DNA of 64,000 bases from Candidatus Bathyarchaeota archaeon (GCA_030608565.1 JAUWDY010000005.1:5359-69358); one strand, 5' to 3'; positions 26,857 to 60,560 are shown, counted from the first letter of the stretch. The notes: a model not told the origin generated them from the sequence alone. Translations and numbers: made by a program.

Positions 26857-26865
26857 CGCCTCAAA

Positions 26866-33771: not shown

Positions 33772-34236
33772 ATGCGCAAATACTCAGTGTTAATGATGTT
33801 AGGGCTCCTTTCAATGCTACTGATTGGATTGCAACTCTCAGCTTCACCAACAACCGCGTCAGCAATAGAGGCTGGACAAGTAAAGTTCGAACCCAAATTC
33901 TTCCGCCTTGACAACCCAGAACCAGTCATAGTCCACGTAAAGTTTCCGCAACCATACGAAAGAAACACAACGGATATAGACCCATCCACAGTTCGGTTAG
34001 AAGGCTCTATTCCACCATTGAACACTTGGACAACACGTGCTCCCCCGGAATTCATCGCTGAGTTCAACGGAGGTGCAGTGGCATCTATAATCTGGGCAAA
34101 AATATACCACATGGGAATAACAACACCAAAACCTTGGGCTCCCACGAAAGTAGAACTGGAGATTTCCGGCAAACTCTTCGACGGAACCGAATGGCACGGC
34201 ATCGGCGAAATCAAAATACTGATACCAGAAACCTAG
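33772..34236 (+). CDS. Small secreted beta-sandwich-like protein, tandem paralog A
   Basis: It has a signal peptide. It shares blocks with 34420..34887: KFEPKFFRLD / KFNPNRIDLS, STVRLEGSIPP / STILLEGSLPP, FIAEFNGGAVASIIWAKIYHMG / LVAEFDGTGVVNIIWGKITHMG. Confidence 0.6.
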   Translation: MRKYSVLMMLGLLSMLLIGLQLSASPTTASAIEAGQVKFEPKFFRLDNPEPVIVHVKFPQPYERNTTDIDPSTVRLEGSIPPLNTWTTRAPPEFIAEFNGGAVASIIWAKIYHMGITTPKPWAPTKVELEISGKLFDGTEWHGIGEIKILIPET

Positions 34237-34419: not shown

Positions 34420-34887
34420 ATGAGAAAGGGGACTCTTGTCTATTCAGTGATTCTTCTCGCCATTCTGACAAGTTTAGTAGCATTTTCGCCAGCAGGCGCA
34501 ACAACCATAACTGGTAGCGCTAAATTCAACCCGAACAGGATAGATTTGTCTCTGCCCGCTCCGAGTGTGGTAAAGGCATCAATAAGATTTGAGAGCGGCC
34601 AGGATGCACAGGTAAGATGGATAAATGTTTCCACTATATTACTCGAAGGTTCGCTTCCTCCTGACAACACCTACTTTAGCACAATTAACACTCTCGTTGC
34701 CGAGTTCGACGGAACTGGAGTTGTAAACATCATATGGGGCAAAATCACTCACATGGGAGCCCTTGCACCACCCTATAAGATCTGGCTCACAATAACCGGA
34801 AATCTGGAAGACACGTATGGTGGAACACCTTTCTCAGTTACAGGCACCATCAGAATCGAAGTTCACCATTCTCCGCCGCCACCCTAG
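34420..34887 (+). CDS. Small secreted beta-sandwich-like protein, tandem paralog B
   Basis: It has a signal peptide. Paralogy is described under 33772..34236. It ends HHSPPPP. Confidence 0.6.
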   Translation: MRKGTLVYSVILLAILTSLVAFSPAGATTITGSAKFNPNRIDLSLPAPSVVKASIRFESGQDAQVRWINVSTILLEGSLPPDNTYFSTINTLVAEFDGTGVVNIIWGKITHMGALAPPYKIWLTITGNLEDTYGGTPFSVTGTIRIEVHHSPPPP

Positions 34888-38086: not shown

Positions 38087-40765
38087 TTGAAGATGAAACG
38101 TGTTGCTCAAACCGTTTATTTTATGACTATGATTCTAATTTTGTCAGCGCCGGCGATTCTATTTTCTTGTGCTGACGAAACGCGCAGTGTTAATGTGGTT
38201 AGCCTCCAAAACGCCGAATCTTCAGGAGATTTTGTTGAGCCTGTTATTTATCACGTATACTCTATAGATCGAGATTTCAACAACATTCAGGATCGTCTCG
38301 AAAGCTTGATTTTGCAAACGTTGCAGGTCAACGAGAGCGCGGTTTTACCTGTTGTAGTTACTCTGTATGGTTCTGTTTCGTCTCAAGACTTGGAATATTT
38401 CAGAGAGCTAGGTGGGAATATACAGCATGTCTACGATCATGTGACATATGGTTTTGCAGGAGAAATTCCTGCGTCTAAGATATCATTGTTTGCAAGTCTG
38501 GAAAGAGAGAAACTTTCTATGATTGAATATGACTTGCCTCTTCGCTATCATTTGGACGTCAGTACTCCTCTCATTCGGGCAAGGCCTACTGTGTGGAACA
38601 CGTATGGCTACATGGGATCTCCAAACCAATCTATCGCCATCCTTGACACAGGCATTGATGACTCCCATCTCGACCTTGGGCCATATCAAAACCTAAATTT
38701 TTCAAGCAAGATGGTGGGCTGGTATGATGCAACCTCTGATAATTCGTTGACGCCGGAAGACTATGGAGAACATGGAACCCACGTTGCAGGCATAGCAGCT
38801 GGAACGGGAACGACAAACAATCTGCAAGGATCGGGTAATATACAAACCACATTCACGTATGTTTTGCCCCCGGTTGGATATGGCTACATGGACATTATTG
38901 ATGTAATGAACCCAGGAGTTATCGAATTAAATGTTAGGTGGGATGGAACCAACGACGTGTTGCTAAGGTTGTATGATCCTTCTGGAGAATGGGTTACACA
39001 AACTAGTGGAAAAAGCCAGCCGTTAATCTTAACTTACAACACGACTGACACGCCTTATCCGACAGGACGTTACGAAGTTCTTGTGGGCAACTTGGCGGGT
39101 CCATCGGGCACTCCGTTTTCATGCATAGAAACCTATCCTTATGAAGGACGTAGCGACGGCTATAACCTCTTCAGCGGAGTTGCACCCAACTCCAAGCTTG
39201 TGGGTGTTAAAGTGTTTGATAACACAGGTTCTGGAACATTTGCAACTCTTTTGGATGCAATGGATTGGATAATTGAAAATCGCCAAACTTATCACATAGT
39301 TGTTGCCAGCATGAGCTTATCACTAGAAGATGGCGCAACTGATACCACGCTTGACCTGAAAGCAGACACTATGGTGCAGAATGGAATTGTAACTGTAGTT
39401 TCAGCGGGCAACGATTATCCAGATTATACTGTAGGCTCGCCTGGAACTGCTGCTTATGTCATAACAGTTGCGGCTACTAATGATCTAAACGGCGTTACCT
39501 CGTATAGTAGTAATGGAGACCAAGCAAAAAATGAGTATGGATTAGTTAAGCCTGATGTTGCTGCTCCGGGTGGAACTTTTGATCCAGCCTATGGAAATCG
39601 TATTATTTCAGCTGATAGTAATGATGTAGACGGCGCGTACAGTGGTTTTTCGGATCAGAATGTAGATGATTATCAACAGATGGGGGGCACATCTATGTCT
39701 GCACCTCATGTTGCTGGGTTGGCTGCCTTGGTTGTTCAAGCCTTGGGCAGTTGGAACTGGACTTTTGAAGAGGCGTTGAAGGTGAAAATGTTGATTGGTA
39801 TGACTGCTTCTGAAACGCAGAAAGGAGAGGGTTCAAACGTGCCTCTGTTAAATCGTGGAGAAAAGGATAGCAAGGAAGGGTATGGGCGGGTTAACGCGGA
39901 TGCTGTTATAGAAGCTGCAACTATGAACTATAGCGTAGGGGAGGAAGTTAATGGCACGTTTGGTTCTGGATCTTCAGATAAGAAAGTTTGGGCTCGACAA
40001 GTTCATTTAACAACAGGCTCCAAATATGTGTTCAATTTGACTGTTCCAGTTGACGCAGATTATGACCTTTTTGTATATAATGGTACGGCAGACAGTTACG
40101 GGCAACCAGTTATCTTGACCAAAAGTGTTAATGCTTCTTTGGGTGCAGACGAGATTATGCAGTTTGCTCCTAACGCTTCAGGCACCTATTATATAGTGGC
40201 TAAGTGGGTGAGCGGTGAAGGTACATTCACCTTGTCCAGTGCCACATCTATTTTGCGTGATGTAGCTGTGACCGATGTAACGGTGTCGGATACGGCGGTG
40301 TATGTCGGGGAAACCGTGAACATTACCGTGGCTGTACAGAATTATGGAGGTGTCCCTGAAAGTTTTGATGTAACGGTTTTTTACAATAGTACTGTTATTG
40401 AAGTGAGAAATGTAAGTGATCTTGCGGTTGGAGCATCTGAAGTTTTAACCTTTAGCTGGGGCACTTCTGGAGTGCAGCCTTGTACCAAAAACTACACAAT
40501 AAAAGCTGAAGCTAGTGTCGTGTCTGACGAGTCTAATATATCTAATAATGTCCTGATCGACGGAGATGTTAAAGTTAAGATGCAAGGAGATGTGAACGGT
40601 GATGGCATTGTGAACGTTTTAGATTTGTCTGTTGTTTCTATGTCCTATGGGAGTTTTGAAGGAGAACCAGACTATAATCTAGATGCGGACTTGAACAAGG
40701 ACGGAGTCGTGGACATGCGCGACCTAGCAAAAGTGGCCATGAACCTTGGAAACACTTGCTCATGA
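38087..40765 (+). CDS. Secreted subtilisin-family (S8) serine protease with an inserted beta-sandwich, PPC-like domain, CARDB-like domain and C-terminal dockerin
   Basis: The catalytic triad contexts are AILDTGIDDSH (Asp), GEHGTHVAGIAAG (His) and GGTSMSAPHVAGLAA (Ser). A ~100-aa insert follows the His. A DYDLFVYNG-type pre-peptidase C-terminal-like domain is present, then a CARDB-like RDVAVTDVTVSD...NITVAVQNYG. The dockerin is GDVNGDGIVNVLDL...DADLNKDGVVDMRDL (nt 40580-40762). Confidence 0.9.
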   Translation: MKMKRVAQTVYFMTMILILSAPAILFSCADETRSVNVVSLQNAESSGDFVEPVIYHVYSIDRDFNNIQDRLESLILQTLQVNESAVLPVVVTLYGSVSSQDLEYFRELGGNIQHVYDHVTYGFAGEIPASKISLFASLEREKLSMIEYDLPLRYHLDVSTPLIRARPTVWNTYGYMGSPNQSIAILDTGIDDSHLDLGPYQNLNFSSKMVGWYDATSDNSLTPEDYGEHGTHVAGIAAGTGTTNNLQGSGNIQTTFTYVLPPVGYGYMDIIDVMNPGVIELNVRWDGTNDVLLRLYDPSGEWVTQTSGKSQPLILTYNTTDTPYPTGRYEVLVGNLAGPSGTPFSCIETYPYEGRSDGYNLFSGVAPNSKLVGVKVFDNTGSGTFATLLDAMDWIIENRQTYHIVVASMSLSLEDGATDTTLDLKADTMVQNGIVTVVSAGNDYPDYTVGSPGTAAYVITVAATNDLNGVTSYSSNGDQAKNEYGLVKPDVAAPGGTFDPAYGNRIISADSNDVDGAYSGFSDQNVDDYQQMGGTSMSAPHVAGLAALVVQALGSWNWTFEEALKVKMLIGMTASETQKGEGSNVPLLNRGEKDSKEGYGRVNADAVIEAATMNYSVGEEVNGTFGSGSSDKKVWARQVHLTTGSKYVFNLTVPVDADYDLFVYNGTADSYGQPVILTKSVNASLGADEIMQFAPNASGTYYIVAKWVSGEGTFTLSSATSILRDVAVTDVTVSDTAVYVGETVNITVAVQNYGGVPESFDVTVFYNSTVIEVRNVSDLAVGASEVLTFSWGTSGVQPCTKNYTIKAEASVVSDESNISNNVLIDGDVKVKMQGDVNGDGIVNVLDLSVVSMSYGSFEGEPDYNLDADLNKDGVVDMRDLAKVAMNLGNTCS
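40662..40759 (+). repeat. ~98-nt near-identical dockerin 3' cassette, copy 2 (partner 36649..36746)
   Basis: See copy 1. Confidence 0.8.
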
Positions 40766-40818: not shown

Positions 40819-43800
40819 TTATAGGTTATCCAAAACATGTTGAGCATCTGTGAGGAGGATGTCTGCGGCTTCAATGGTTATATGCTTGCCAGATTGGGCT
40901 TTTAGCTGATTAATGAATGCTTTGAGCATTTTCTTTGCCACTTCGGGTTTTCCTTGTTCAATCTTCTTTTGGGCAGCGTACAGCTTGTCTATTAGACCTG
41001 ACGCAACGTCCTCTTCATCAATATAGCCTAAGTCATAGAACTTTTCTACAAGGCCGATCAAGCTGTCGATTGTCGCTATTACGTTGAATTCGACTGTTTC
41101 AGTGGCGGAGTTTCCAGCGTTATCTACAGCAGTAACGGTCAATGTGTGTAGTCCCAAGCTGAAGGTGAAAAGCTCAATTAAGTCACCGTTCTCAACAGTT
41201 ATTCCGTCTAACGTTGCGGAGATTGATGCTACTCCAGATTCTGTGTCAACAGCGTTGAAATCAAGAGTTATACTCTCTGAATGTAGGTAATCTCCGGCTA
41301 CTGGTTCGTTGATTGTGATTGTTGGTGGTGTCACATCTACTCCTGAAATCTCGGTGAAAACAGCCGTTAACGAGTGATCGTCATTCATGGTAACTGTGTA
41401 GGGGTCGGCTGAACCAACATCAACACCATCTAGAAGCCAGTGGTCCAGCAGCCAACCACCATCAGGAATAGCATCAACAGGAACCCCTAAACCCTCATCA
41501 TACAGGTGAACGCCAGGAGCAGGAACAGTAGTACCAGAACCAACAACGCTGATGGTCAAAGTATATTGGGTTGGAGGAATCTCAGTAAAGACGGCAGTTA
41601 ACGTGTGATCGTCATTCATAGTGACCGTGTAGGGATCAGCGGAACCGACGTCAACACCATCAAGAAGCCAGTGATTCAGCATCCAACCACTATCGGGAAT
41701 AGCGTCGACGGGAACCCCTGAGCCCTCATCATGTTGGTAGGTGCCAGGGGTGGGAACAGTAGTACCCGAACCAACAACACTAATGGTTAGAGTGTACTGG
41801 GTTGGAGGAAGCTCACCAAAGACAGCTGTCAACGTATGATCAGTATTCATGGTAACCGTATAGGGATCAACCGAGCCAACATCAACACCATCGAGCAACC
41901 AGTGATCTAGCATCCAGCCACTGTCGGGAATTGCATCGACTGGAACTTCTGAGCCTTCATCATAGAGGTAAGTGCCGGGAGAAGGCTCGGTAGTACCTGC
42001 CCCAACAACATCGATAGTCAATTCATACTGAGTTGGAGGAAGTTCGACGAAAACAGCGGTTAGGGTGTGATTGGCATCCATGGTAACCGTGTAAGGGTCA
42101 GCAGAACCAACATCAACACCATCCAGAAGCCAATGACTCAACTCCCAACCACTATCAGGAATAGCGTCAACTGGAACCTCCGAGCCCTCATCATAGAGGT
42201 GAACGCCAGGAGCAGGAACAGTAGTACCAGAACCCACAACGTCGATAGTTAAGGTATATTGTGTCGGCGGAGGCGTGGAGAAGTATCCGCCTGTCGTGTC
42301 GTGAGATATCGGATCTCCACTAGAATCTAGGAGAATGGAATCGTATAAGGGTAGGTCGGATTCTCCGGTGTCTAATACGTTGAAGGTTACGGTGAAAAGG
42401 TTTCCGCTACCGCTCACTCCAGGATACTTGCCTAAGGTGACACAGGCAACATAAGCATAATCGTCGTCGATGATGTATGTGAAGTATGTTCCCACAGGGG
42501 ACGTAGTTTGATCTTTTATGAAAGGGCCTTCTTCGACATCAAATGGTCCCAGAACAGTCTTGTTGAAGCCCAGTTTAACCTCATACGCGAAGAGATCCTC
42601 AACGTTTTGGATATTTATGTTGAGGGTGAAGGAATCACCAGGACCAGCACTGACCACAGAAGGATCAACATACATCAGAACCGCTGAAACCTCAGTAAAG
42701 ACAGCGGTTAACGAGTGATCGTCATCCATAGTAACCGTGTAAGGATCCGCTGAACCAACATCAACACCATCAAGCAACCAGTAATCCAACATGTAACCAC
42801 TGTCGGGAATAGCATCAACAGGAACCCCTAAACCCTCATCATGCAGGTAGCTGCCGGGAGAAGGATCAGTAGTGCCTGACCCGGTAACACTGATAGTTAG
42901 AGTGTACTGAGTTGGAGGAATCTCAACAAAATAGGCAGTTAAAGCATGATCAGCATTCATAGTAACCGTATAAGGATCACCAGAACCAACATCAACGCCA
43001 TCCAGAAGCCAATGACTCAACTCCCAACCACTATCGGGAATAGCATCAACAGGAACCCCTAAACCCTCATCATACAGATGGGTGCCAGGAGCAGGATCGG
43101 TGGTTCCGGAGCCAACAACCCCAATAGTTAGTTCATACTGGGTTGGAGGAATCTCAGTAAACACTGCAGTCAAAGTGTGATTGTCATCCATGGTGACTGT
43201 ATAGGGATCAGCGGAACCAACATTAACACCATCCAGAAGCCAATGGTTCAACTCCCAACCACTATCAGGAATAGTGGCAACAGGAACCTCCGAGCCTGCA
43301 TCATACTGGTGGGTGCCAAGAGAAGGATTAGTAGTGCCTGATCCAACAACCTCAATCGTCAAAGTATACTCAGTTGGCATCTCAACGAAGACAGCTGTTA
43401 AAGTGCGATTATCATTCATGATGACCGTGTATGGGTCAGCAGAACCAACATCAACACCGTCAAGAAGCCAATGACTCAACTCCCAACCACTATCAGGAAT
43501 GGAGGCAACCTCAACTTCTGTCCCTGCGTCAAAGGTGTAAGTGTCTGGGGATGGAACAGTGGTTCCAGAGCCGACAACGCTGAGGGTTAGAGTGTATTGG
43601 ATTGGAGGAATCACAACAAAATAGGCGGTTAACGTGTGATCAGCATTCATGGTAACCGTGTACGGATCAGCAGAACCAACATTGACGCCATCAAGCAACC
43701 AGTAATCCAACATGTAACCACTATCAGGAATGGCATCAACAGGAACCAGCGTACCCTCATCATACAGGTGAACGCCAGGAGCAGGAACAGTAGTACCAGA

Positions 43801-44874
43801 ACCAACAACGCCAATCGTGAGCTCATACTGAACTATTGTCTCAATAAAGACGGCGGTTAAAGTGTGATCATCATCCATAGTAACTGTATAAGGGTCAGCC
43901 GAGCCAACGTTAACACCATCCAGAAGCCAATGACTCAACTCCCAACCACCATCAGGAATAGCATCAACAGGAACCCCTAAACCCTCATCATACAAGTGAG
44001 TGCCGGGAGCAGGATCGGTAGTACCAGAACCAACAACGCCGATAGTTAAAGTGTACTGGGTTCCACCGATGTTGCTGAAGAATCCGCTTTCCTTGATTAG
44101 CTCTCCTTCCGCATCTCCCTTAGTTTCTCCTATGCCGTTTATGATGTATGTGAATGACCAGTCAATGTCCAAAGTTGTCTCCGCTTCAGCTTGTACATGG
44201 AATGTGAATGTGGATAGCCAACCGTTGCCTTGGGCACCGGGTGCGGGTCCACTGCTTGTTGTACCAGCCATGATGTCTCCCCAATCCTGATCTATGAGTG
44301 CTGTTGGCGTGAGGTTAGGCTGGGGATAAGCCCCCCCATTCGCAGCCACAGTATAGGTGTTCACAAGGTTGTCCTTCATAGTTAGCTGGGTACCTAAAAC
44401 AGAAGCAACCTGGTTCTCCTCGCTATTACTGTCATCTTCAATCAAAACTGCGTAACCTGCCGTAAACTTTGATCCATCAGCAACGTTCACTATTTTCTGG
44501 CCTGAAGCAGCATCCGCAGTTAGAAGACCCCATGGTCCTACTCTAGGAGCAACTAGGAAGTCACCCCATATAACCGTGGCATCTATGTCCAACACAGAGG
44601 GCTCCCACTTCATGTAAACCTGCCAGGCATAAACATCAGTGCCTTCATTAAAGTCGGCGTCAGAAATCATTATGTCAACTGTGAAGCTGTTGCCTGGCGT
44701 CAAGCCTGAATCAATAACGCTTGGAGGGTCCACATATATGGTTGGGAGGACGGCAGCTTGTGCCAAGTTTGTGTGGGGCAAGGGGCTGCTGGCAAATATA
44801 TTGATGAAAACGAATGTAAGGACTAGAAAGAGTAGGGGCCATTTTAGGAGACGAAGTTTCAATTTTGTTACCAC
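40819..44874 (-). CDS. 1351-aa scaffoldin-like secreted protein: insert-bearing cohesin-like module, 6 repeats, second cohesin, 4 repeats, Ig-like domain, helical C-terminal domain
   Basis: It has a signal peptide. Residues 41-267 form cohesin-like module 1, which carries a ~100-aa insert. Residues 273-729 and 871-1176 hold ten ~78-aa repeats (QYTLTI.VVGSGTT.P.PG...YDEG..VPVDAIPDSGW.L.HWLLDGV.VGSADPYTVTM...H.LTAVF), resembling InlB-B/Listeria-Bacteroides-type repeats. Residues 731-866 form cohesin 2 (EGPFIKDQTTSP subtype). The C-terminal helical part (KMLKAFINQLKAQSGKHITIEAADILL) resembles FIMAH-type domains. There is no dockerin and no TM tail. Confidence 0.8.
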   Translation of the reverse strand: MVTKLKLRLLKWPLLFLVLTFVFINIFASSPLPHTNLAQAAVLPTIYVDPPSVIDSGLTPGNSFTVDIMISDADFNEGTDVYAWQVYMKWEPSVLDIDATVIWGDFLVAPRVGPWGLLTADAASGQKIVNVADGSKFTAGYAVLIEDDSNSEENQVASVLGTQLTMKDNLVNTYTVAANGGAYPQPNLTPTALIDQDWGDIMAGTTSSGPAPGAQGNGWLSTFTFHVQAEAETTLDIDWSFTYIINGIGETKGDAEGELIKESGFFSNIGGTQYTLTIGVVGSGTTDPAPGTHLYDEGLGVPVDAIPDGGWELSHWLLDGVNVGSADPYTVTMDDDHTLTAVFIETIVQYELTIGVVGSGTTVPAPGVHLYDEGTLVPVDAIPDSGYMLDYWLLDGVNVGSADPYTVTMNADHTLTAYFVVIPPIQYTLTLSVVGSGTTVPSPDTYTFDAGTEVEVASIPDSGWELSHWLLDGVDVGSADPYTVIMNDNRTLTAVFVEMPTEYTLTIEVVGSGTTNPSLGTHQYDAGSEVPVATIPDSGWELNHWLLDGVNVGSADPYTVTMDDNHTLTAVFTEIPPTQYELTIGVVGSGTTDPAPGTHLYDEGLGVPVDAIPDSGWELSHWLLDGVDVGSGDPYTVTMNADHALTAYFVEIPPTQYTLTISVTGSGTTDPSPGSYLHDEGLGVPVDAIPDSGYMLDYWLLDGVDVGSADPYTVTMDDDHSLTAVFTEVSAVLMYVDPSVVSAGPGDSFTLNINIQNVEDLFAYEVKLGFNKTVLGPFDVEEGPFIKDQTTSPVGTYFTYIIDDDYAYVACVTLGKYPGVSGSGNLFTVTFNVLDTGESDLPLYDSILLDSSGDPISHDTTGGYFSTPPPTQYTLTIDVVGSGTTVPAPGVHLYDEGSEVPVDAIPDSGWELSHWLLDGVDVGSADPYTVTMDANHTLTAVFVELPPTQYELTIDVVGAGTTEPSPGTYLYDEGSEVPVDAIPDSGWMLDHWLLDGVDVGSVDPYTVTMNTDHTLTAVFGELPPTQYTLTISVVGSGTTVPTPGTYQHDEGSGVPVDAIPDSGWMLNHWLLDGVDVGSADPYTVTMNDDHTLTAVFTEIPPTQYTLTISVVGSGTTVPAPGVHLYDEGLGVPVDAIPDGGWLLDHWLLDGVDVGSADPYTVTMNDDHSLTAVFTEISGVDVTPPTITINEPVAGDYLHSESITLDFNAVDTESGVASISATLDGITVENGDLIELFTFSLGLHTLTVTAVDNAGNSATETVEFNVIATIDSLIGLVEKFYDLGYIDEEDVASGLIDKLYAAQKKIEQGKPEVAKKMLKAFINQLKAQSGKHITIEAADILLTDAQHVLDNL
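41347..42264 (-). repeat. Four in-frame tandem coding repeats (~231-234 nt each) in the scaffoldin gene
   Basis: These are protein repeats 7-10 (aa 871-1176), the same family as 42688..44058. Confidence 0.85.
42688..44058 (-). repeat. Six in-frame tandem coding repeats (~231-234 nt each) in the scaffoldin gene
   Basis: These are protein repeats 1-6 (aa 273-729). Recurrent nucleotide strings such as ccatccagaagccaatgactcaactcccaaccactatc are visible. Confidence 0.85.
44084..44640 (-). repeat. ~555-bp dispersed direct repeat, copy 1 (insert-bearing cohesin-like module), roughly 90% identical by eye to 46412..46968
   Basis: The two copies align with a constant offset of 2328 nt. For example, cccccccattcgcagccacagtataggtgttcacaaggt and agaagcaacctggttctcctcgctattactgtcatcttcaatcaaaactgcgtaacctgcc occur in both. 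Confidence 0.8.
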
Positions 44875-44948: not shown

Positions 44949-46091
44949 CTATCTCGCAAACGCTAGCTTCGCAGGGTACTTCGGTTGTTTTCGTTTGTGT
45001 TTGCTCCACCAGATGTAGATGATGACTCCTATTAGAGCGATTTCTAAGGCAGCTCCAAAGGGAAACTCTGGTACAGCGCTGATGGTTACTGAGCCGTCAG
45101 TGGTGGTGTGCTCCATTCTATTGGCTAATCGTTTGTTGGTGAAGTCGTATCCGACAAGTTTTGTATCTGTGAGGTTTAGGCCTGTTGTTCCTGAAGTTCC
45201 ATCTACAGTGAAAGTGATTGTGGCCAAGGTTCCGCTGCCTGATGCTCCTGCGGTGTCTCCGGTGAGAGTGCATGTGACCCAATATCGTCCGTGGGTTGCA
45301 TTGTAGGTGTCGGTGTTGTTTAATACGCTGAAGAAAGTTGTGCCCGCGGATGACAGGAAGGTTCCTTGAGTAACGCTGCCATTGGTTAAGATGTTGTTTT
45401 TGTAGTAGAGTTTGAACTCCCAGCCGTAGAGGTCATCTACGCTGGCGATGTCTATGTCAACAGTAAATGGTGAAGAAGGATCAGATAAACTGGATGGACT
45501 CACACTCATTGTGCCCTTCTGATAAGCGGTTACGGTCACCCAAGCCTCGTACTCGTAGAAGTAGGCGGCGCCTCCACCGCCAGTACCACCTTCAACACGT
45601 AACCTAATGTCTGTTATGTCTGTCCAGCTCCACACTCCATCATTAGGTTCACTTTGGCTAAGCCACACCCTCTCTGGGCTCGTGTAGTCATAGTCTACAC
45701 CAGACCCGATCCAATCCTGCAATACAACCGGGCCGGCAGTTCCTACGTAATAAACAATCCTGTAATTCTCCCCTGTGCCACCCTTTCCAGATTTATAATT
45801 CATCTTGAAGTCGACGAAGGCTATACCCTTTGTTGTAGGTGCTCCGCTTATGCTAAATGTTTTTACTTCTTCATATTCGCTTTTGTCATATGCTATCCGC
45901 GCATAAGTAGCGGTACTGCCATCGTAGGCATCTGCTGGATCATCAACGCCAGCATCTGCAACATGAGCCGTTGGACTAGAATCATATGTAGCCATTGCTG
46001 GGCTTGCGTAAGCTACGTTAAGGAATAGAAGCGTTAATGTTCCATAAAGAACAAGTAAAAAGATTAAACATTTTTTGATCTTATTCAACAC
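44949..46091 (-). CDS. Surface-anchoring cohesin protein: unknown N-terminal domain + cohesin + PEF-CTERM-like sorting tail
   Basis: It has a signal peptide. Residues 193-338 are a cohesin (VDDLYGWEFKLYYKNNIL ... ASGSGTLATITFTV ... TDGSVTIS). The tail is AVPEFPFGAALEIALIGVIIYIWWSKHKRKQPK. Confidence 0.75.
   Translation of the reverse strand: MLNKIKKCLIFLLVLYGTLTLLFLNVAYASPAMATYDSSPTAHVADAGVDDPADAYDGSTATYARIAYDKSEYEEVKTFSISGAPTTKGIAFVDFKMNYKSGKGGTGENYRIVYYVGTAGPVVLQDWIGSGVDYDYTSPERVWLSQSEPNDGVWSWTDITDIRLRVEGGTGGGGAAYFYEYEAWVTVTAYQKGTMSVSPSSLSDPSSPFTVDIDIASVDDLYGWEFKLYYKNNILTNGSVTQGTFLSSAGTTFFSVLNNTDTYNATHGRYWVTCTLTGDTAGASGSGTLATITFTVDGTSGTTGLNLTDTKLVGYDFTNKRLANRMEHTTTDGSVTISAVPEFPFGAALEIALIGVIIYIWWSKHKRKQPKYPAKLAFAR
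44952..45077 (-). other. PEF/PEFG-CTERM-like tripartite sorting signal (motif, TM helix, basic cluster), putative archaeosortase substrate site
   Basis: The signal reads VPEFPFG + AALEIALIGVIIYIWW + SKHKRK. Related tails occur at 49633..49743 (LPEAPFG...KMKKSK) and 52710..52808 (SEPFP...YMRRKRT). Confidence 0.55.
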
Positions 46092-46225: not shown

Positions 46226-47164
46226 CTAGTAGTTTGCGTAGACTCCGTATTGAAGGGACACCAACGTTAAGTCGATGACGTTAACATAGCCATCGTTGTT
46301 TATGTCTTCTGGGCCTTCATATCCGGGTCCAGACTCGACTTTTAGCGCTACAGAAGACAGGTCGAATATGTCAACAGCGCCATCTGCATTCAAGTCTTCA
46401 TCCTTCGGTAGAAGGAAGTAGCCGCTTTCCTTGATTAGCTCTCCTTCCTCATCTCCCTTAGTTTCTCCTAAGCCATTTATGAGGTATGTGAATGACCAGT
46501 CAATGTTCAAAACTGTCTCCCCTTCAGCTTGTACATAAAATGTGAATGTGGATAGCCAACCGTTGCCTTGAGCACCGGGTGCCGGTCCATGACTTGTTGT
46601 ACCAGCCATGATGTCACCCCAACCATGATCTACGAGCGCCGTTGGCGTGAGGTCAGGCTGAGGATAAGCCCCCCCATTCGCAGCCACAGTATAGGTGTTC
46701 ACAAGGTCGTTCAACATAGTTAGCTGGGTACCTAAAACAGAAGCAACCTGGTTCTCCTCGCTATTACTGTCATCTTCAATCAAAACTGCGTAACCTGCCG
46801 CGAACTTTGATCCATCAGCAACGCTCACTATTTTTTGGCCTGAAGCAGCATTCGCAGTTAGAAGACCCCACGGCCCCACTCTAGGAGCATCCAGAAAGTC
46901 ACCCCATATAACCGTGTCATCTATGTCCAACACCAGAGGATCCCACTTCATGTAAACCTGCCAAGCAAAAACATCAGTGTGTAAATCGTAATCCGCATCA
47001 TAAACATAGATATCGACGTAGAAGATCCCACCCGTTCTTCCAGTATAGTACGTAGGTTCAACTTTGAAGGATGGTGTGGTGTCTGTTGAACCGAAATTTA
47101 TGAAGACTAGACTTAAGAGTAGTGAAAGAAGTAATGATATCCATAGGTTTTTAGTTACTTTCAT
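46226..47164 (-). CDS. Secreted insert-bearing cohesin-like module + divergent dockerin (adaptor-type)
   Basis: It has a signal peptide. Its module is near-identical to scaffoldin module 1 (DVFAWQVYMKWDPLVLDID...GNGWLSTFTFYVQAEGETVLNIDWSF). The dockerin is DLNADGAVDIFDL...EDINNDGYVNVIDL (nt 46229-46405). Confidence 0.75.
   Translation of the reverse strand: MKVTKNLWISLLLSLLLSLVFINFGSTDTTPSFKVEPTYYTGRTGGIFYVDIYVYDADYDLHTDVFAWQVYMKWDPLVLDIDDTVIWGDFLDAPRVGPWGLLTANAASGQKIVSVADGSKFAAGYAVLIEDDSNSEENQVASVLGTQLTMLNDLVNTYTVAANGGAYPQPDLTPTALVDHGWGDIMAGTTSHGPAPGAQGNGWLSTFTFYVQAEGETVLNIDWSFTYLINGLGETKGDEEGELIKESGYFLLPKDEDLNADGAVDIFDLSSVALKVESGPGYEGPEDINNDGYVNVIDLTLVSLQYGVYANY
46412..46968 (-). repeat. 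~555-bp dispersed direct repeat, copy 2 (see 44084..44640)
   Basis: The alignment is the same as described for copy 1. Confidence 0.8.
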
Positions 47165-47240: not shown

Positions 47241-48137
47241 TTAAGGTACAACGGCGAAGCTGAAGGTTTTCACCTTCTCTCCTGGCGACCAATAGGTTCC
47301 ACTCCAACTATACCAAGCTTTAGCGCTCACATAGTATTTCCCAGCATCCGCAGGTACCAATGGCCCGAAATCCGCTGACAACTCAACTATTACAAGAGGT
47401 GTAACGACAACCTCATCCGTGCTCACAGTGGTCAACAACGTATCGTCGCGCATAATGTCGAACACTACCTTAACGTAGAGGTCAAGGTGGTCAAGGTTTT
47501 TCACCTTAGCATTAAGCGTCTGAATCGCATCTTCGTCTTTTGATACAACAAAGTGGTGGTGTTCTGGCCATGCGCTTCGTCTTACTACGTCAGCACGTGC
47601 AGTTGTATAGAAGTATCCGCCCGCTGTGTCGTGAGACATCGTTGTTCCAGTAGAATCTAGGAGAATAGTATCGTATAGAGGTAGGTCGCACGCTCCAGCA
47701 TCCATGACATTAAAGGTTATACTGACCAGGACTCCGCTGCCGCTAATTCCAGGATATTTCCCTAAGGTGACGCAGGCAACATAAATGTAGTCGCCGCTGA
47801 CGATATACGTGAAGTATGTTCCCATGGGAGATGTGGTCTGATCCTTTATGAAAGGTCCCTCGTCGACACTAACTGGCGTCAGAAGATTGTCATTAAAGCC
47901 TAGTTTAACTTCGTAGGAGAACAGGTCGACAACATCTTGAATGTTTACGGTGATTGTGAAGGAGTCGCCTGGATTCGCAATGTTTTCTTCAAGGTCAACG
48001 GAAAGCAGAGGCAAAGTGACGGGTGCAAATGCTGTGCTCACACTGGATAGAACCATAAGAGACAACAGGAGTAAAGGAAGCCATCTAAGATTTTCCTTTC
48101 TCAAACTCTCACCTTCTCGTGTTGATAATTTACACAC
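47241..48137 (-). CDS. Secreted cohesin (EGPFIKDQTTSP subtype) + C-terminal Ig-like domain
   Basis: The probable start is the TTG at 48104, after GAAGGTGAG. It has a signal peptide. Residues 43-178 are a cohesin (nt 47604-48011). The C-terminal ~115-aa domain ends KTFSFAVVP. There is no dockerin and no TM tail. Confidence 0.7.
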   Translation of the reverse strand: MCKLSTREGESLRKENLRWLPLLLLSLMVLSSVSTAFAPVTLPLLSVDLEENIANPGDSFTITVNIQDVVDLFSYEVKLGFNDNLLTPVSVDEGPFIKDQTTSPMGTYFTYIVSGDYIYVACVTLGKYPGISGSGVLVSITFNVMDAGACDLPLYDTILLDSTGTTMSHDTAGGYFYTTARADVVRRSAWPEHHHFVVSKDEDAIQTLNAKVKNLDHLDLYVKVVFDIMRDDTLLTTVSTDEVVVTPLVIVELSADFGPLVPADAGKYYVSAKAWYSWSGTYWSPGEKVKTFSFAVVP

Positions 48138-48203: not shown

Positions 48204-49457
48204 TCATGTAGCCCCAAGGTTCATAGCGACCAACACGAGGTCACGCATATCAACAACGCCATCAGCATTAATGTCGCACTCAGGATCATATTCTGGCTCA
48301 CCTTCAAAAGAGCCAAAAGCAATCGACACCAACGTGATGTCAACCACATTGACAACTCCATCACTGTTGACGTCTCCTACGAGGGAGGTCTTGTAGTAAA
48401 TGTCATAGTTTCCCCAATCTGGTTGGTCTGCCCTATCTGAGGTCCACACTACCCAGATTTTGACAAGATGTGTCTGAACCACTGAGGGCCATATGTCATC
48501 GTACTTGTCTGTGGTGAATTGAAAAATATCTAACCATGTAACACCATCGTCAGATGAGTGCATGTAGTAGATGTCATCGGTTGCTGTTTCCGCGGGTTCA
48601 CGTTGTGACCAGAAAATCCGTATTTTTCTATCTATAGTTTGGAGAACATATGGGTTTGAATCGATCCTTGGGCCACTTGTTATTTGGGTGTCCTCAGACC
48701 ATGAAGCACCAAAGTTAGAAGAGGTTTTATGGTATAAGTCGTAGTTGCCGGTTCTATCAGAGGCCCAGACAACCCAAATCGTATTATCGGACGTTTCTGT
48801 GAGAGAAGGCATTTTGTCGAGACTTGAATCCGTAGTGAGTCGTATGTCGTCAGACCAAGAGGTTTCGTTGTTGTAAGAAAGTTTTCGATACAAATCGTAG
48901 CCTCCACTTCTATCAGAGGCCCAGACAACCCAAATTGACTCATCAGACATCTGGTGGATAGCGGGTTTTAGGTCGTGACCAGAATAGAAAGTTAGTTGAG
49001 TATCGTTAGACCATGAAGCACCAAAGTTTGGGGAAGTCTTGTAGAAAATCTCGTAGTTGCCGGTTCTATCAGAGGCCCAAACAACCCAAATTGTGCCATC
49101 TGAAGCTTGACAAGCGGAAACCCCTGAATTAGCGGTGCCATTTATAGTTAACTGGGTTTCTTGTGACCAGCTAACTCCCCAATTAGTTGAAGTTACATAG
49201 AAGAGATTATAACTGTCAATTATTTTTCTGGTCCAGAAAATCCACAATGTTCCATTATGTGTCTCAATGATGGCTGGAATTCCATCGAAATCCACGTAAG
49301 TGGTTAATCTAACTTCATCATCTGACCATGTTACGGCGCCAACGAGAATTGTTGATACGATTAGTAACAATGTAAACAAAACTGATGCGATAAGTCTCAT
49401 TTTGAAATCTATTTCTACTTGAAAAAGCTGCCCCAGATTCTTCCTCCCTCCTCTCAA
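48204..49457 (-). CDS. Secreted BNR/Asp-box beta-propeller (sialidase-like fold) + C-terminal dockerin
   Basis: Asp-box-like repeats seen: STNWGVSWS, SPNFGASWS, SYNNETSWS, SSNFGASWS, SSDDGVTWL. IWVVWASDR strands recur. The dockerin is GDVNSDGVVNVVDI...CDINADGVVDMRDL (nt 48207-48380). Confidence 0.8.
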   Translation of the reverse strand: MRGGRKNLGQLFQVEIDFKMRLIASVLFTLLLIVSTILVGAVTWSDDEVRLTTYVDFDGIPAIIETHNGTLWIFWTRKIIDSYNLFYVTSTNWGVSWSQETQLTINGTANSGVSACQASDGTIWVVWASDRTGNYEIFYKTSPNFGASWSNDTQLTFYSGHDLKPAIHQMSDESIWVVWASDRSGGYDLYRKLSYNNETSWSDDIRLTTDSSLDKMPSLTETSDNTIWVVWASDRTGNYDLYHKTSSNFGASWSEDTQITSGPRIDSNPYVLQTIDRKIRIFWSQREPAETATDDIYYMHSSDDGVTWLDIFQFTTDKYDDIWPSVVQTHLVKIWVVWTSDRADQPDWGNYDIYYKTSLVGDVNSDGVVNVVDITLVSIAFGSFEGEPEYDPECDINADGVVDMRDLVLVAMNLGAT

Positions 49458-49629: not shown

Positions 49630-52578
49630 CTAGACTGGTTTGGATTTCTTCATTTTCACCAAGTAAACTGCCATTACTGCGATTACTATTGCCATTCCGA
49701 TAGTCGTGTAGTGAAAGATGCCGAAAGGCGCCTCCGGCAATTCTTGTATGAGAACTCCAATGGTTCGCGAATTGTCCACACTATAGGTTTCTCCAGGTAA
49801 AGGTTCGGCTAATGCTTTGACTGTGTAAATGCCGGCCGCTATATTTCGTGTATCCCACGTAAGGCTTATTGTCTCATTTACGCCTGTAGCTAAAGGCGCG
49901 GTGAGGGCTCGTGTAAGTCGAGTGTTGTTATAGTAAATTGTCACATTAAACGATTCTATTGCAGTGCCCTTGTTCAAGGCGATCACATTTATTGTTAGCA
50001 ATTCTCCTTTGGTTGCTTTGATTTTTGATACTTCAATGTCGAGAATAGCTATGTCTTGGATCGCCACGTTCACGCTCAGTTCAGGACTTTCAGCTGAAAG
50101 AGTTATTGAATCGCCTTTCCAAGAGGCTTTGATTTGGTAGATGCCAGATTCTGTTGGCATCCAATCAAAGGAGTATTGACCGTTTTGACTTGTTGAGACA
50201 TTTGCAAGAGACATCCAAGCGGTCTCCTCAACACGTGTATATTCAATGGCCACAATCACGCTAGCACGAGCAGGTGAAATGGACCCGCTGATAGTTGTGT
50301 TGAAGCCAAGGGGAACGGTTGTAGGCGAAGTGGATATGGCAATTGTGCTAGACGATTTTGGCACTATTACAGTCTCTGTTTTCGTATGGTCTAAGCCGTC
50401 GTCGTCAACTACCTTCAATTTCACAGCGTAGGTGCCAGGCATACTGTAAGCATGGGTTGCAGTCACGCCCGTGGCGTTTGCCTCATCACCAAAATCCCAT
50501 ATGTAATTCATGATCTCTCCTTCAGGGTCTCCTGGTGCATAGCTGGCTGACGCGTCAAAAGTGACTACTTCGCCCATGTTTGGCTCACTGGGCGAGAAAG
50601 TGAAAAAAGGTACAGGGAGCAACCGAATCAGAACAGTCAAGTTTTGCACGTTGTTCGTCGTATTAGCTTCGTCAACAACAGGGGGTACATATGCAGTTAC
50701 ATTGTATACACCTTCAACAGTGGAGTTCATTGCCCTAAACCAACTGAAGCTCAATGTTGTGGTGGCTCCGGCTGACAGTGTTACCGCAGTCTGATTTGCT
50801 ATAGGTTCGGTTGAATTGGCATAAACAAACACGTCGAAAGTGTCGTCTATATTGCCTTTGTTTTCAATCTCAACTTCTATGGTTGAAATTCTTCCTACAA
50901 CGATGTCGGTTGGACTGACTTCTATATTGGTAATTGCTATATCGTGTACAGGAACTTCGGTGGCGACTATTGGATCGCCAAAAAGTGTGTTGTCGACTGT
51001 GTTTTTCTCTTCGCTGGGACGAAAAACATGAGGTTTGATAAAATCGACTAAGTAGGCGTTTGCCCATATAGCGTAAGATCCTGGTGTAATGTCTCTTGGT
51101 TGAAGAGGGTTGATTCTCACTGGAAGCCAATCAACATAAATTGGCGTTGCGTTGACTCCAACCTGGATGTACCTTATACGAACCCTTGTTTTATTCATCA
51201 GGCTGGGCTCCCATAAGAGGCTGCCAGTTACGTCAACCCAGAAAAATGCATCGGTTACAGATGTGATGTTATAGACGATATCTTCGCTCCAAGTCTTTCC
51301 GTTGTAAACGCTCATGTTTAACTGATCATCTCCGCCTACATCAGTTTTCACTTCTATTCCAACTTCCACTTTGGATACGCAAGTCCACCCGATGGTGTCA
51401 AATTCGTAGCCTCTAAATTCTTGATATGTGTTATTGGTGCTGGTGTAGGTATAGAGATCATCTGAAGTGGAAGCGTTGAGCGGATAAGTCCACGCTCCAA
51501 CACCTTCTATAGAAGGACTCAACATTGTTTGATTGATATACGTATTCCAAAGGAACGTAAGGGTTTCATTGTCTCCGGGACTTAAACCGTCCACAAATTC
51601 AGTGTTTATCGGTATACTGTTGTAGAAGGCGGTCACGTTGAATGTGTCGTGGTGACTACCATTGTTCAGAACGGTCACATCGATTCTTGCTATTTCACCC
51701 GTGTGAACTTCGTCTGGGGTTTCTATCTCCAAGATGGCTATGTCATGGAATTTAACGTCCACCTCAAGCGAGACGGTGTTGTTTTCGCCATCGTCGTCAG
51801 TGATTGAAAGCGTCACATTGTATGAGGTAAGAAGAGTAGTAGATACGTTGTAAGCATGAGTTGTGATCACGTCCGTTCCATTTGTTCCATCATCAAAATC
51901 CCATACGTAACTGACTATGCTACCTCCATCAGGGTCGTAGCTGGCAGAGGCGTCAAAAGATATAGTTTCACCAACTATTGGACGCCCATAGGTATCAGGG
52001 GTAAAGGAGAAAGCAGCCACGGGTGCAGTTGTGTGGAAATCTCCGTCAGATGTGCTATGTGAAATTTCAACAACAGAAGAATCCAACAATATTGTGCCAT
52101 AGAGGTGTAGAGTGGATTCTCCTGCGGCTTTTACAGTGAAGGTTACGGTGAAAAGGTTTCCGCTGCCGCCTACTCCAGGATACTTGCCCAAAGTGACGCA
52201 GGCAACATAAACATAATCGTCAGCGATTGTGTATGAAAAGTATGTTCCCATCGGAGACGTAGTTTGATCTTTTATGAAAGGCCCTTCCTCAACATCAGTT
52301 GCTTCCAGAACGTTCTTATCGAATCCTACTCTAGCCTCATACGAGAAGAGATCTGTGACATCGGCGACGCCGATCTCAATGATAAAAGATTCAGTAGGGT
52401 TCGCCACATTGTTCGCAGGATCTACCGCAATTGTTGTGTCAGGAGAAGCTGATGCATGTAATGGAAAGGGTAAAATCACGCCTAGTGCAGCTACAAGTAC
52501 TATTGACAGTAAAAGAAAAGTTATGCTGAACCTTTTGGGATGATGTAACTTACGTAATCTCATAAGCCCTCTCTCCAA
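49630..52578 (-). CDS. 982-aa surface protein: cohesin + PKD + CARDB-like domains + unknown domain + PKD + Ig-like domains + PEF-CTERM-like tail
   Basis: The probable start is the ATG at 52563, after GGAGAGAGGG. The cohesin spans aa 48-183 (nt 52030-52437). PKD motifs are present (FDASASYDPDGGSIVSYVWDFDDGT; FDASASYAPGDPEGEIMNYIWDFGDE). Several CARDB-like modules occur (HDIAILEIE..., HDIAITNIE..., QDIAILDIE...). The tail is LPEAPFGIFHYTTIGMAIVIAVMAVYLVKMKKSKPV. I counted >20 N-x-S/T sequons by eye. Confidence 0.8.
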   Translation of the reverse strand: MERGLMRLRKLHHPKRFSITFLLLSIVLVAALGVILPFPLHASASPDTTIAVDPANNVANPTESFIIEIGVADVTDLFSYEARVGFDKNVLEATDVEEGPFIKDQTTSPMGTYFSYTIADDYVYVACVTLGKYPGVGGSGNLFTVTFTVKAAGESTLHLYGTILLDSSVVEISHSTSDGDFHTTAPVAAFSFTPDTYGRPIVGETISFDASASYDPDGGSIVSYVWDFDDGTNGTDVITTHAYNVSTTLLTSYNVTLSITDDDGENNTVSLEVDVKFHDIAILEIETPDEVHTGEIARIDVTVLNNGSHHDTFNVTAFYNSIPINTEFVDGLSPGDNETLTFLWNTYINQTMLSPSIEGVGAWTYPLNASTSDDLYTYTSTNNTYQEFRGYEFDTIGWTCVSKVEVGIEVKTDVGGDDQLNMSVYNGKTWSEDIVYNITSVTDAFFWVDVTGSLLWEPSLMNKTRVRIRYIQVGVNATPIYVDWLPVRINPLQPRDITPGSYAIWANAYLVDFIKPHVFRPSEEKNTVDNTLFGDPIVATEVPVHDIAITNIEVSPTDIVVGRISTIEVEIENKGNIDDTFDVFVYANSTEPIANQTAVTLSAGATTTLSFSWFRAMNSTVEGVYNVTAYVPPVVDEANTTNNVQNLTVLIRLLPVPFFTFSPSEPNMGEVVTFDASASYAPGDPEGEIMNYIWDFGDEANATGVTATHAYSMPGTYAVKLKVVDDDGLDHTKTETVIVPKSSSTIAISTSPTTVPLGFNTTISGSISPARASVIVAIEYTRVEETAWMSLANVSTSQNGQYSFDWMPTESGIYQIKASWKGDSITLSAESPELSVNVAIQDIAILDIEVSKIKATKGELLTINVIALNKGTAIESFNVTIYYNNTRLTRALTAPLATGVNETISLTWDTRNIAAGIYTVKALAEPLPGETYSVDNSRTIGVLIQELPEAPFGIFHYTTIGMAIVIAVMAVYLVKMKKSKPV

Positions 52579-52706: not shown

Positions 52707-54011
52707 TCAAGTGCGTTTTCTTCTCATGTAAAAGACTACGACGGCTAAGACTATGATTACGCCTATGGCGCCACCGATGACTAGGGTTGTTGGAAATGGT
52801 TCGGAAACCACGTTTACCGTAACAGTTCCGTCTTTGAACTCATTGTCGTCAGTGTCAACTTCGCCTTCGACTGTTGATGCAATAGCCTTTATCTGATAGT
52901 CTCCTTCAGCAACGCCTGTTGTGTCCCAGCTGAAAGTCAATGTTTCTTCGCTTCCAGGGCTCAAACCATCAACTTGCTGAGTGGCTATCGTGTTGGTGCC
53001 ATAGTATGTTGTTACGCCAAAGTCTTCTGATTCAGTGCCATCATTCCGAGCCGTTACATCAATGGAAACGGTTTCCCCAGCGTTAACTACTGCTTTCGAC
53101 ACTACAACGTTAGTTACTGCCACGTCATGAGCATAAGCGATACTCAGTGTTACCTCCTTTGTGCTGAAAAGTTCATACCAAATCCGCGGCATATCAGTAG
53201 TGTTGAATTGAGACTGCACAAGCGCAGACGCTGTGGCATCGTCGATGACAGTTAAAGAGGCAGTGAAAATTCCGCCAGTTGTGTAGGTATGTTCAGTAGT
53301 TGCCGTAGTGACCGAAGCATTTGTTCCATCTCCGAAATCCCAATAGTACTCAGCAATTTCCAATGGTGAGGTGGCACTGCTTGCTGAAGCGTTGAAGGTT
53401 GTCGGCTGATCTATTCCAGGAGGGTCAGGAGAATATGTGAAGTCAGCTACGGGTGGAATTAGAGTGTTGATAAAAAGACCGTTTTGGACAATGAGTTCAA
53501 GATCTTCAAAGTCGGGGGGAGGATTAGGGCTGTTCTGAGCTGTCAGATAAGTCAGATATATCTCTGTACCTGGGAGTGGATCGGTTTCAAACTTCAGGAG
53601 GGATTCTCCCTCAGCCACAACTTCAAACTCTACTGTCGCCAAAACTCCGCTGCCACTTATTCCTTGGTATTCACCGATTGTTGACCAGCCGAAAAGCGCT
53701 GAGGATTCTTCGATGTTCTGAACCCCAAATGTTCCATCAGGTTGCCACGCCAGGAAGTCTCCTTCTGTGACGTTGACAAAATTCAGTACGTCTGAATTGA
53801 AGGTTAGGTTTATCTGCCAAGCGTAGAGAAAATCGGCACCGGAAACAGTCACGTTGACTTTGAAGGATTCATCGACTGTTTTGTACACGATTGCTGGGTC
53901 AAAACTGATTTTTGCTGTAGCAGAAGAAGAGACAGTTTCAAGATTTATTAGAGTTGCTGCAAGAAGAAATGCCGAAAAGACAATTATGAGTAGCTTCTTT
54001 TTAAAGTTCAT
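52707..54011 (-). CDS. Surface protein: cohesin + PKD + CARDB-like domain + C-terminal TM/basic tail
   Basis: It has a signal peptide. The cohesin reads ADFLYAWQINLTFNSDVLNF ... GISGSGVLATVEFEVVAEGES. The PKD motif is FNASASSATSPLEIAEYYWDFGDGT. The CARDB-like module is HDVAVTNVVVSK...DVTARNDG. The tail is SEPFPTTLVIGGAIGVIIVLAVVVFYMRRKRT. Confidence 0.8.
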   Translation of the reverse strand: MNFKKKLLIIVFSAFLLAATLINLETVSSSATAKISFDPAIVYKTVDESFKVNVTVSGADFLYAWQINLTFNSDVLNFVNVTEGDFLAWQPDGTFGVQNIEESSALFGWSTIGEYQGISGSGVLATVEFEVVAEGESLLKFETDPLPGTEIYLTYLTAQNSPNPPPDFEDLELIVQNGLFINTLIPPVADFTYSPDPPGIDQPTTFNASASSATSPLEIAEYYWDFGDGTNASVTTATTEHTYTTGGIFTASLTVIDDATASALVQSQFNTTDMPRIWYELFSTKEVTLSIAYAHDVAVTNVVVSKAVVNAGETVSIDVTARNDGTESEDFGVTTYYGTNTIATQQVDGLSPGSEETLTFSWDTTGVAEGDYQIKAIASTVEGEVDTDDNEFKDGTVTVNVVSEPFPTTLVIGGAIGVIIVLAVVVFYMRRKRT

Positions 54012-60547: not shown

Positions 60548-60560
60548 GGAGAAAGCAAAA

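Follow-up and report, generated by a model that had tools for sequence, protein, structure and literature searches.

C-terminal tails of cohesin proteins and a candidate archaeosortase signal in a Bathyarchaeia locus

How are the cohesin proteins of an uncultured archaeon held at the cell surface, and does a sorting enzyme take part? The question is raised by a 64,000-nucleotide stretch from Candidatus Bathyarchaeota archaeon (GCA_030608565.1, JAUWDY010000005.1:5359-69358), here called the window, whose right half (~33-59 kb) is a dense cohesin-dockerin cluster and whose left half (~5-32 kb) is a glycan-biosynthesis locus that includes an archaeosortase gene. The same genes recur on Logan contigs of SRR14876854 and on one 81.7-kb NCBI contig. 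The original prediction held that three cohesin proteins of the cluster end in related tails, a P-E-x-P-F-(G) motif followed by a transmembrane (TM) helix and basic residues, which together form a PEF-like sorting signal dedicated to anchoring subunits. In this study, we consider it rather probable that the window encodes a cohesin-dockerin system for surface display in Bathyarchaeia, in which the tail of protein 1 is a PEF-type signal processed by an archaeosortase, and the tails of proteins 2 and 3 are plain TM anchors. Comparison with relatives shows three anchor families rather than one signal class, because the family to which tail 2 belongs does not retain PEAPFG and the family of tail 3 uses E-x-F-P.

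Three tails and their families

The three proteins and the parts of tail 1 are located as follows.

44949..46091, minus strand: protein 1, 380 residues, with signal peptide, beta-sandwich (unknown family, ~34-198), cohesin (201-337) and PEFPxG-type C-terminal tail
49630..52578, minus strand: protein 2, 982 residues, with N-terminal cohesin, PKD and CARDB domains (Pfam) and TM/basic tail
52707..54011, minus strand: protein 3, 434 residues, with N-terminal cohesin, PKD, CARDB (Pfam) and TM/basic tail
45054..45071, minus strand: P-E-F-P-F-G motif of tail 1, residues 341-346
45006..45059, minus strand: TM helix of tail 1 (FGAALEIALIGVIIYIWW), helix 345-365 in the AlphaFold (AF2) model
44988..45005, minus strand: basic cluster SKHKRK of tail 1, R/K-rich in all orthologs
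44952..44987, minus strand: hypervariable post-basic extension of tail 1 (QPKYPAKLAFAR), 12 residues

Translation returned all three tails where they had been predicted. Protein 1 ends ..TISAVPEFPFGAALEIALIGVIIYIWWSKHKRKQPKYPAKLAFAR, and its tail (44952..45077) reads AVPEFPFG-AALEIALIGVIIYIWW-SKHKRK-QPKYPAKLAFAR, so that AVPEFPFG and SKHKRK are present as described and the protein runs on for 12 residues past the basic cluster, at which it had been said to end; these residues fall inside the coordinates given for the tail in the prediction. Protein 2 ends ..IQELPEAPFGIFHYTTIGMAIVIAVMAVYLVKMKKSKPV, with tail 2 (49633..49743) reading ELPEAPFG-IFHYTTIGMAIVIAVMAVYLV-KMKKSKPV and PEAPFG at 49720..49737, and protein 3 ends ..VNVVSEPFPTTLVIGGAIGVIIVLAVVVFYMRRKRT, with tail 3 (52710..52808) reading VSEPFP-TTLVIGGAIGVIIVLAVVVFY-MRRKRT and E-P-F-P at 52791..52802. 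Proteins 1, 2 and 3 match Pfam Cohesin PF00963 with 35.5, 40.2 and 37.1 bits, respectively (gathering cutoff 24.1), and none of the three has a Pfam dockerin match, in agreement with the prediction. The cohesin of protein 1 lies at residues 204-337, behind the unrelated beta-sandwich, according to Pfam, AF2 and Foldseek, and is thus not N-terminal as had been stated for all three. In the AF2 model of protein 1 (predicted local distance difference test, pLDDT, 89.7) the TM helix starts directly after PEFP, and the best Foldseek match of the model is the Archaeoglobus fulgidus cohesin 2xdh (E = 2e-8).

The tail of protein 1 is strongly conserved. Motif, TM helix and basic cluster are kept in over 60 orthologs, the most distant at 42% identity, with the consensus [AG]-V-P-E-F-P-[FLM]-G-x-A-L-E-[IV]-x-L...Y-x-W-W followed by the basic cluster. 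Across 32 orthologs of 42-74% identity, E342, F343 and P344 are invariant, and conservation is 90% or more for V340, P341 and G346; within the TM helix Glu350 and Leu353 are invariant and Y359 and W361 are conserved. The mean majority fraction is 0.74 for tail 1, 0.61 for the whole protein and 0.27 for the post-basic extension, whose length among orthologs varies from a few to ~35 residues.

The motif also extends beyond this family. Among all sequences fetched, 75 distinct PE[FY][PA]xG tails were collected, in which x is L (32), F (29), M (10), W (1), V (1) or Q (2); the two matches with Q are unrelated, non-TM sequences. The proposed variant with extra residues is supported, with the signature P-E-F-P-x-G (x being L, F, M, W or V) in place of the proposed PE[FA]PFG: P-E-F-P and G are fixed, the second Phe is not. 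Two TM flavours occur behind it, G-x-A-L-E...Y-x-W-W and G-L...A-P-x-I-P...Y-[IL]-W-R. In related contigs, four or more architectures bear PEFPxG tails: members of the protein 1 family, including short (~210 residues) and long (530-700 residues) forms, a PKD/CARDB protein (L025), a 240-residue protein without Pfam match (L095) and distant paralogs (L089, P0185). Most of them stand behind the same cohesin subtype. Such spread over different proteins is the behaviour expected of a sorting signal. A search of a 5.8-billion protein set with a tail-only profile returned two short fragments, its E-value ceiling of 10 and 40-residue minimum being unsuitable for so short a profile.

It had been proposed to check the tails against the PEF-CTERM and PEFG-CTERM models, and by this test no tail of the window reaches a cutoff. 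Tail 1 scores 13.3 bits (cutoff 23) with PEF-CTERM TIGR03024 once trimmed after the basic cluster, aligning over its full length from model position 1, and gives no TIGR03024 match untrimmed. Tail 2 matches none of the sorting-domain models including TIGR03024, tail 3 scores 16.4 bits with TIGR03024 over its TM/basic part only, and none of the three matches PEFG-CTERM TIGR04296 (cutoff 25). Tails of related metagenome cohesin proteins do pass cutoffs, of PEF-CTERM (23.7 vs 23), PEFG-CTERM (28.5 vs 25; range among related loci 8.6-28.5 bits) and Heimdall-CTERM (24.9 vs 24), thus the models are able to detect short tails. Pro-Glu-Phe directly before the C-terminal TM helix is present in tail 1 (P341-E342-F343, helix from 345), whereas tail 2 has P-E-A and tail 3 S-E-P; a basic cluster is found in all three, followed in tail 1 and its orthologs by the variable stretch.

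Tail 1 shares with PEF-CTERM/ArtC systems a P-E-F that borders the C-terminal TM helix on its outer side and a basic cluster behind the helix, and differs from PEF-CTERM in its sub-cutoff score, the fixed P-x-G after PEF, the invariant intramembrane Glu, the Y.WW, the post-basic extension and its Bathyarchaeia lineage. It is a divergent relative of the established PEF-CTERM class and, by the curated cutoff, falls outside it. PEFG-CTERM (TIGR04296) is reported from ammonia-oxidising Nitrososphaeria (PMC6593220, PMC9122916); it likewise has a P-E-F..G motif, TM helix and basic tail, and some cohesin tails of related loci pass its model, while tail 1 reads PEF-P-x-G without a model match and the archaeosortase of the window gives no ArtE match.

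Open reading frames (ORFs) of the window contain PE.PFG exactly twice in 19.9 thousand residues, against 0.003 expected from shuffles, both copies directly before a C-terminal TM helix, and the codons of the two motifs differ; the likeness of tails 1 and 2 is therefore due neither to chance nor to recent gene conversion. In family 2, PEAPFG is retained only in the near-identical relative P0375 (93.6% identity) and is absent from about ten relatives of 31-60% identity, including L006 (57%) and P0313 (60%). The latter's TM helix nearly equals that of protein 2, and a syntenic ortholog also lacks the motif; the linkers in its place are unrelated, e.g. ESSGASLD and QAQAQLNV. PEAPFG of tail 2 is a recent, lineage-restricted acquisition of uncertain function. 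The search with full-length protein 2 returned 150 representative matches, mostly PKD-repeat proteins, about 40 of which have a C-terminal tail, enough to define the family-2 tail by h-F-L-Y where the TM helix starts and Y-[FL]-[LV]-K-x-[RK]-K-P-K-(P) where it ends. This anchor is strikingly conserved on large cohesin/PKD/CARDB proteins (window 49633..49743; L006 3438-6458; P0313, P0237, P0268, P0323, P0369), and so specific a cytoplasmic end is unusual for a plain anchor.

In orthologs of protein 3 the TM helix is immediately preceded by E-x-F-P, or at any rate by F-P (SEPFP in L006, AEAFP in L015, SEAFP in L043, EQQFP in L024, APAPFP in L084). A reading of tail 3 as a register-shifted PEF signal was rejected, the PEF-CTERM model aligning only from F-P onward (10.9-16.4 bits). 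Of the predicted tail class common to all three proteins, then, PE.PFG is found in tails 1 and 2 only, S-E-P-F-P of tail 3 being out of register, and tail 1 alone stands as a candidate PEF-like signal.

An archaeosortase linked to PEFPxG tails

The candidate processing enzyme is encoded in the left half of the window, next to a conserved neighbour and within the glycan locus.

6223..7086, minus strand: archaeosortase-family protein, 287 residues, unclassified Bathyarchaeia subtype
7102..8217, minus strand: DegT-type aminotransferase, conserved immediate neighbour of the archaeosortase
17300..27636: glycan locus with FemAB-like and polysaccharide-deacetylase genes (NCBIfam), notably 23342..24463, 20710..21741, 24960..25823 and 26866..27636

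The 6223..7086 protein is above the cutoffs of TIGR04178 (44.6 bits, cutoff 23) and PF09721 (49.6, cutoff 25.7), and its nearest archaeosortase subtype is ArtC (TIGR03762), with 25.6 bits against a cutoff of 100. None of 25 homologs (48-93% identity) departs from C196, R241 and H261, and, as in PEF-CTERM/ArtC systems, a Cys/Arg/His enzyme of the archaeosortase family is encoded in the same genome as the tail. All named ones among the 158 homologs found are from Bathyarchaeota, the protein of Candidatus Bathyarchaeum sp. E44_bin4 being 94% identical, and a profile search of genome contigs with the archaeosortase alignment returned one locus only, that of Ca. Bathyarchaeum sp. E44_bin4.

Since no archaeosortase gene was found in 80 cohesin loci, linkage was tested starting from the archaeosortase side. 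The enzyme and a PEFPxG-tail protein are on one contig in five loci, in three of them within 10 kb: the PEFPxG protein lies 4.4, 7.6 and 9.3 kb upstream of the archaeosortase in L095, L089 and L093, respectively, where the enzymes are 48-53% identical. The spacing is 38 kb in the window and ~50 kb on the 90-kb contig Ga0209991_10000010. Two of the seven archaeosortase loci were uninformative, the contig of L094 ending 2 kb upstream and the 10 kb upstream in L088 holding sugar-metabolism genes only. In each of the seven loci the archaeosortase directly follows DegT (7/7). In L095, L089 and L093 the recurring order is PEFPxG protein, 150-residue secreted protein, NosD(-dockerin), S8(-dockerin), DegT and archaeosortase, followed by a 115-residue protein, GT2, deacetylase and glycosyltransferases. 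A tie between the tails and an archaeosortase, which had been suggested, is thus borne out as genomic linkage of PEFPxG tails to an enzyme of unclassified subtype. The tripartite layout of tail 1 together with this linkage argues for the same kind of system as PEF-CTERM/ArtC, though tail and enzyme score below the curated cutoffs.

The best NCBIfam matches in the glycan locus are to XrtA/PEP-CTERM-associated families, the FemAB-like TIGR03019 (192.5 bits, cutoff 260) and the deacetylase TIGR03006 (149.6, cutoff 276). Judged by gene content, the archaeal locus resembles a bacterial exosortase exopolysaccharide (EPS) locus: both have a tripartite C-terminal signal of the P-E-x type and a sorting enzyme inside a glycan-biosynthesis locus, and FemAB-like and polysaccharide-deacetylase genes are present in that of the window. 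The differences are the archaeal host, PEF rather than PEP, FemAB and deacetylase scores below the equivalog cutoffs, and cohesin proteins as the candidate substrates.

Two small conserved companions accompany the system, a secreted protein of ~150 residues with a Pro-rich end beside the PEFPxG protein and a protein of ~115 residues (..ERWGN..W[KR]HD.GF[IV]RFLG[IV]N) directly after the archaeosortase. They are located at:

Window: 33772..34236, 34420..34887, 31665..32099
L089: 2390-2842, 12926-13267
L093: 750-1208, 11115-11462
L095: 5600-6067, 11072-11419

Toxin-antitoxin pairs (MazE/PIN, MNT/HepT, TumE) were also seen beside the archaeosortase in L089 (7875-8540, 11858-12578) and L090 (13892-18256), and not in the window.

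Anchored and docked proteins

The distribution of anchors was surveyed in 501 non-redundant ORFs from the window and 80 metagenome loci that the alignment of protein 1 had retrieved, using home-made hidden Markov models (HMMs) for cohesin and dockerin that were spot-checked with Pfam. TM+basic tails were counted in all ORFs and in those ORFs that did not select their locus.

Cohesin-only: 59/103 of all ORFs; 32/53 of ORFs that did not select the locus
Dockerin-bearing: 0/127 of all ORFs; 0/86 of ORFs that did not select the locus
Neither domain: 31/271 of all ORFs; 28/223 of ORFs that did not select the locus

The difference between cohesin-only and dockerin-bearing proteins is sharp (Fisher test, p = 6e-27 for all ORFs and p = 1e-17 for those that did not select the locus). 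In this respect the prediction is supported, C-terminal anchors and dockerins being mutually exclusive in related loci (0/127). From these counts, surface proteins seem to be either anchored directly or docked via a dockerin, with cohesin-only proteins as the main anchored class. The 59 anchors on cohesin-only proteins comprise 20 of PEF type, 3 with E-x-F-P, 1 with PE.PF (protein 2) and 35 others. Among ORFs that did not select the locus, 9/12 PEF tails are on cohesin-only proteins (enriched, p = 3e-6). A signal class dedicated to cohesin anchors, as had been envisaged, does not emerge: two NosD-like beta-helix proteins that lack a cohesin (L028, L036) carry PEF tails as well, PEFPxG tails are present on proteins without Pfam cohesin, and most cohesin anchors in related loci bear other tail types. 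No single tail class is dedicated to cohesin-only proteins.

A recurrent second tail type among these others, N-K-L-E-L-L-A-P-[WY] followed by TM and a K/R-rich end, was observed on single-cohesin proteins of ~216 residues (L055 2323-2973, L063 611-1282, L067 9869-10495, L074 123-773, L075 2-550, L079 9926-10618, L080 2936-3586). No curated sorting-domain model scores above cutoff for it, the nearest being LPXTG (15.6 bits vs 15.9), and it may be another sorting signal.

Candidate cargo and a further anchored protein are encoded around the three cohesin proteins.

35040..36749, plus strand: NosD-like beta-helix protein with C-terminal dockerin, candidate cargo (Pfam)
36765..37898, minus strand: NosD-like beta-helix protein (Pfam NosD) with TM/basic tail, without PEF motif or cohesin
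38087..40765, plus strand: subtilase S8 with CARDB and dockerin, candidate cargo (Pfam)
48204..49457, minus strand: BNR-repeat protein with dockerin, candidate cargo (Pfam)
54129..55751, minus strand: BNR-repeat protein with dockerin, candidate cargo (Pfam)

An N-terminal hydrophobic signal sequence is visible in every protein of the display system, and export would be by Sec. The cohesin-only anchored proteins would then be cell-bound docking sites, to whose exposed cohesins the dockerin proteins would bind, the cargo being putatively the S8 protease, NosD-like beta-helix, BNR and OppA-like binding proteins. The C-terminal helix would hold protein 1, the basic cluster lying on the cytoplasmic side, until most likely the archaeosortase (Cys196/Arg241/His261) recognises PEFPxG at the outer membrane face, cleaves near PEF and transfers the protein to a lipid or glycan acceptor; a covalent membrane anchor would result, and the TM helix, basic cluster and variable extension would be discarded. 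Proteins 2 and 3, with anchors of the FLY...YFLKxRKPK and E-x-F-P types, would stay as type-I TM proteins. More tentatively, PEFPxG-TM-basic could be the cognate signal of a Bathyarchaeia-specific archaeosortase subtype, which sits in an XrtA-like glycan locus and would fix cohesin docking proteins covalently to the envelope, and PEAPFG on protein 2 might then reflect convergent recruitment of a second anchor to this enzyme.

Several points weigh against archaeosortase processing of tail 1 or its generality. None of the three tails reaches any curated NCBIfam sorting-domain cutoff, and the 6223..7086 protein fails every archaeosortase subtype model; the 64-kb window shows one strict PEF tail only, and in tail 2 an Ala stands in place of the Phe that is invariant in the family of tail 1. 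The invariant intramembrane Glu350, the conserved Y.WW and an extension of up to ~35 residues are atypical and could mean that the TM helix is retained. The survey loci were chosen by cohesin similarity, the ORF calling was crude and the cohesin and dockerin HMMs were home-made. To our knowledge, only ArtA with PGF-CTERM has been experimentally shown to be processed, and no PEF-type signal has been.

A rival explanation is that all three tails, tail 1 included, are ordinary uncleaved type-I TM anchors, their motifs kept for structure or for a partner, with the archaeosortase serving other substrates. Sub-threshold scores with every sorting-domain model fit it, as do Glu350, Y.WW and a variable cytoplasmic extension on a retained helix, and families 2, 3 and most cohesin anchors in related loci are indeed without the PEF motif. 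We nevertheless regard it as rather unlikely, in view of where PEF lies, the tripartite layout, the match of tail 1 to the PEF-CTERM model along its full length, the relatives that pass curated cutoffs, the linkage of PEFPxG to the archaeosortase across 48-100% enzyme identity and the presence of the same tail on several architectures. It is very improbable that PE.PFG is merely inherited or coincidental sequence travelling with the cohesin module, as most PEFPxG tails standing behind one cohesin subtype and the lack of conservation of PEAPFG in family 2 might suggest, for the motif is far better conserved than the post-basic extension and better than the protein average, its two copies with differing codons far exceed expectation, and PEFPxG occurs on the PKD/CARDB protein and on the 240-residue protein without detectable cohesin.

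With a cohesin, a surface anchor, no dockerin and dockerin partners nearby, the anchored proteins have the features of the functional class of cellulosome-type anchoring scaffoldins. Their closest functional counterparts are the sortase-anchored ScaE of Ruminococcus flavefaciens and the SLH-anchored clostridial scaffoldins, which are likewise dockerin-less cohesin proteins fixed at the surface by a C-terminal sorting signal, with dockerin proteins encoded nearby. The differences are a putative archaeosortase and membrane lipid here in place of sortase and peptidoglycan or SLH, and a single cohesin per anchor. Unlike in cellulosomes, the candidate cargo consists of protease, beta-helix, BNR and solute-binding proteins, with no recognisable cellulases. 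Cohesin-dockerin proteins of anaerobic methanotrophic (ANME) archaea (PMC9012536, PMC5244752) share the abundance of archaeal cohesins and dockerins, the dockerin on OppA-like proteins and the absence of a cellulolytic context, but no anchoring signal was proposed there, whereas anchors and a linked archaeosortase are identified here. In the searchable literature on archaeal cohesin-dockerin proteins, of ANME and other archaea, many domains and no anchoring signal were found described.

The locus thus offers a rule, anchor on cohesin-only proteins and never on dockerin proteins, and a candidate enzyme-signal pair in uncultured but abundant Bathyarchaeia, both of which are useful and testable for specialists, if not very surprising. 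If the proposed processing is true, this would be an archaeosortase-based archaeal counterpart of sortase-anchored cellulosomes, and for cohesin-dockerin assemblies of archaea a mechanism of attachment would be defined for the first time. Current curated models miss these Bathyarchaeia tails, so that their proteins are annotated as hypothetical TM proteins; with a profile built for such tails, the surface proteome of these archaea would be predicted better.

Other proteins of the cluster

Two looser TM/basic tails without the PE.PF motif had also been listed. That of the NosD-like protein 36765..37898 is present, without PEF; this protein is anchored by the tail, and its paralog 35040..36749 bears a dockerin instead. 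In 2051..4396 the C-terminal hydrophobic stretch has 13-15 residues only and is a marginal TM helix. The latter is a 781-residue repeat protein with a lone dockerin-like calcium loop (GDINMDGVVDNKDL), the hydrophobic stretch and a KKRKQPR end; it looks like a fusion of half a dockerin with a marginal anchor and is the sole near-exception to the exclusion of dockerin and anchor.

A dockerin ends an OppA-like solute-binding protein (SBP_bac_5) that adjoins ABC permease and ATPase genes (57234..59372, 59549..63946), an arrangement known from ANME archaea (PMC9012536).

Three further cohesin proteins of the window are tail-less (40819..44874, 47241..48137, 55830..57224). The first, of 1351 residues, contains an internal cohesin and ten InlB-B-like repeats and ends in FIMAH; it shares 77% identity over residues 36-266 with the N-terminus of 46226..47164, a dockerin protein, and 67% identity in the cohesin with 47241..48137. 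These identities point to recent module duplication within the cluster, involving 40819..44874, 46226..47164 and 47241..48137. Cohesin proteins with neither anchor nor dockerin were also seen to end alike, with ..KTFSFAVVP in 47241..48137, ..MHFWIVP in 55830..57224 and ..KTFSFAVK in L084 5861-6739.

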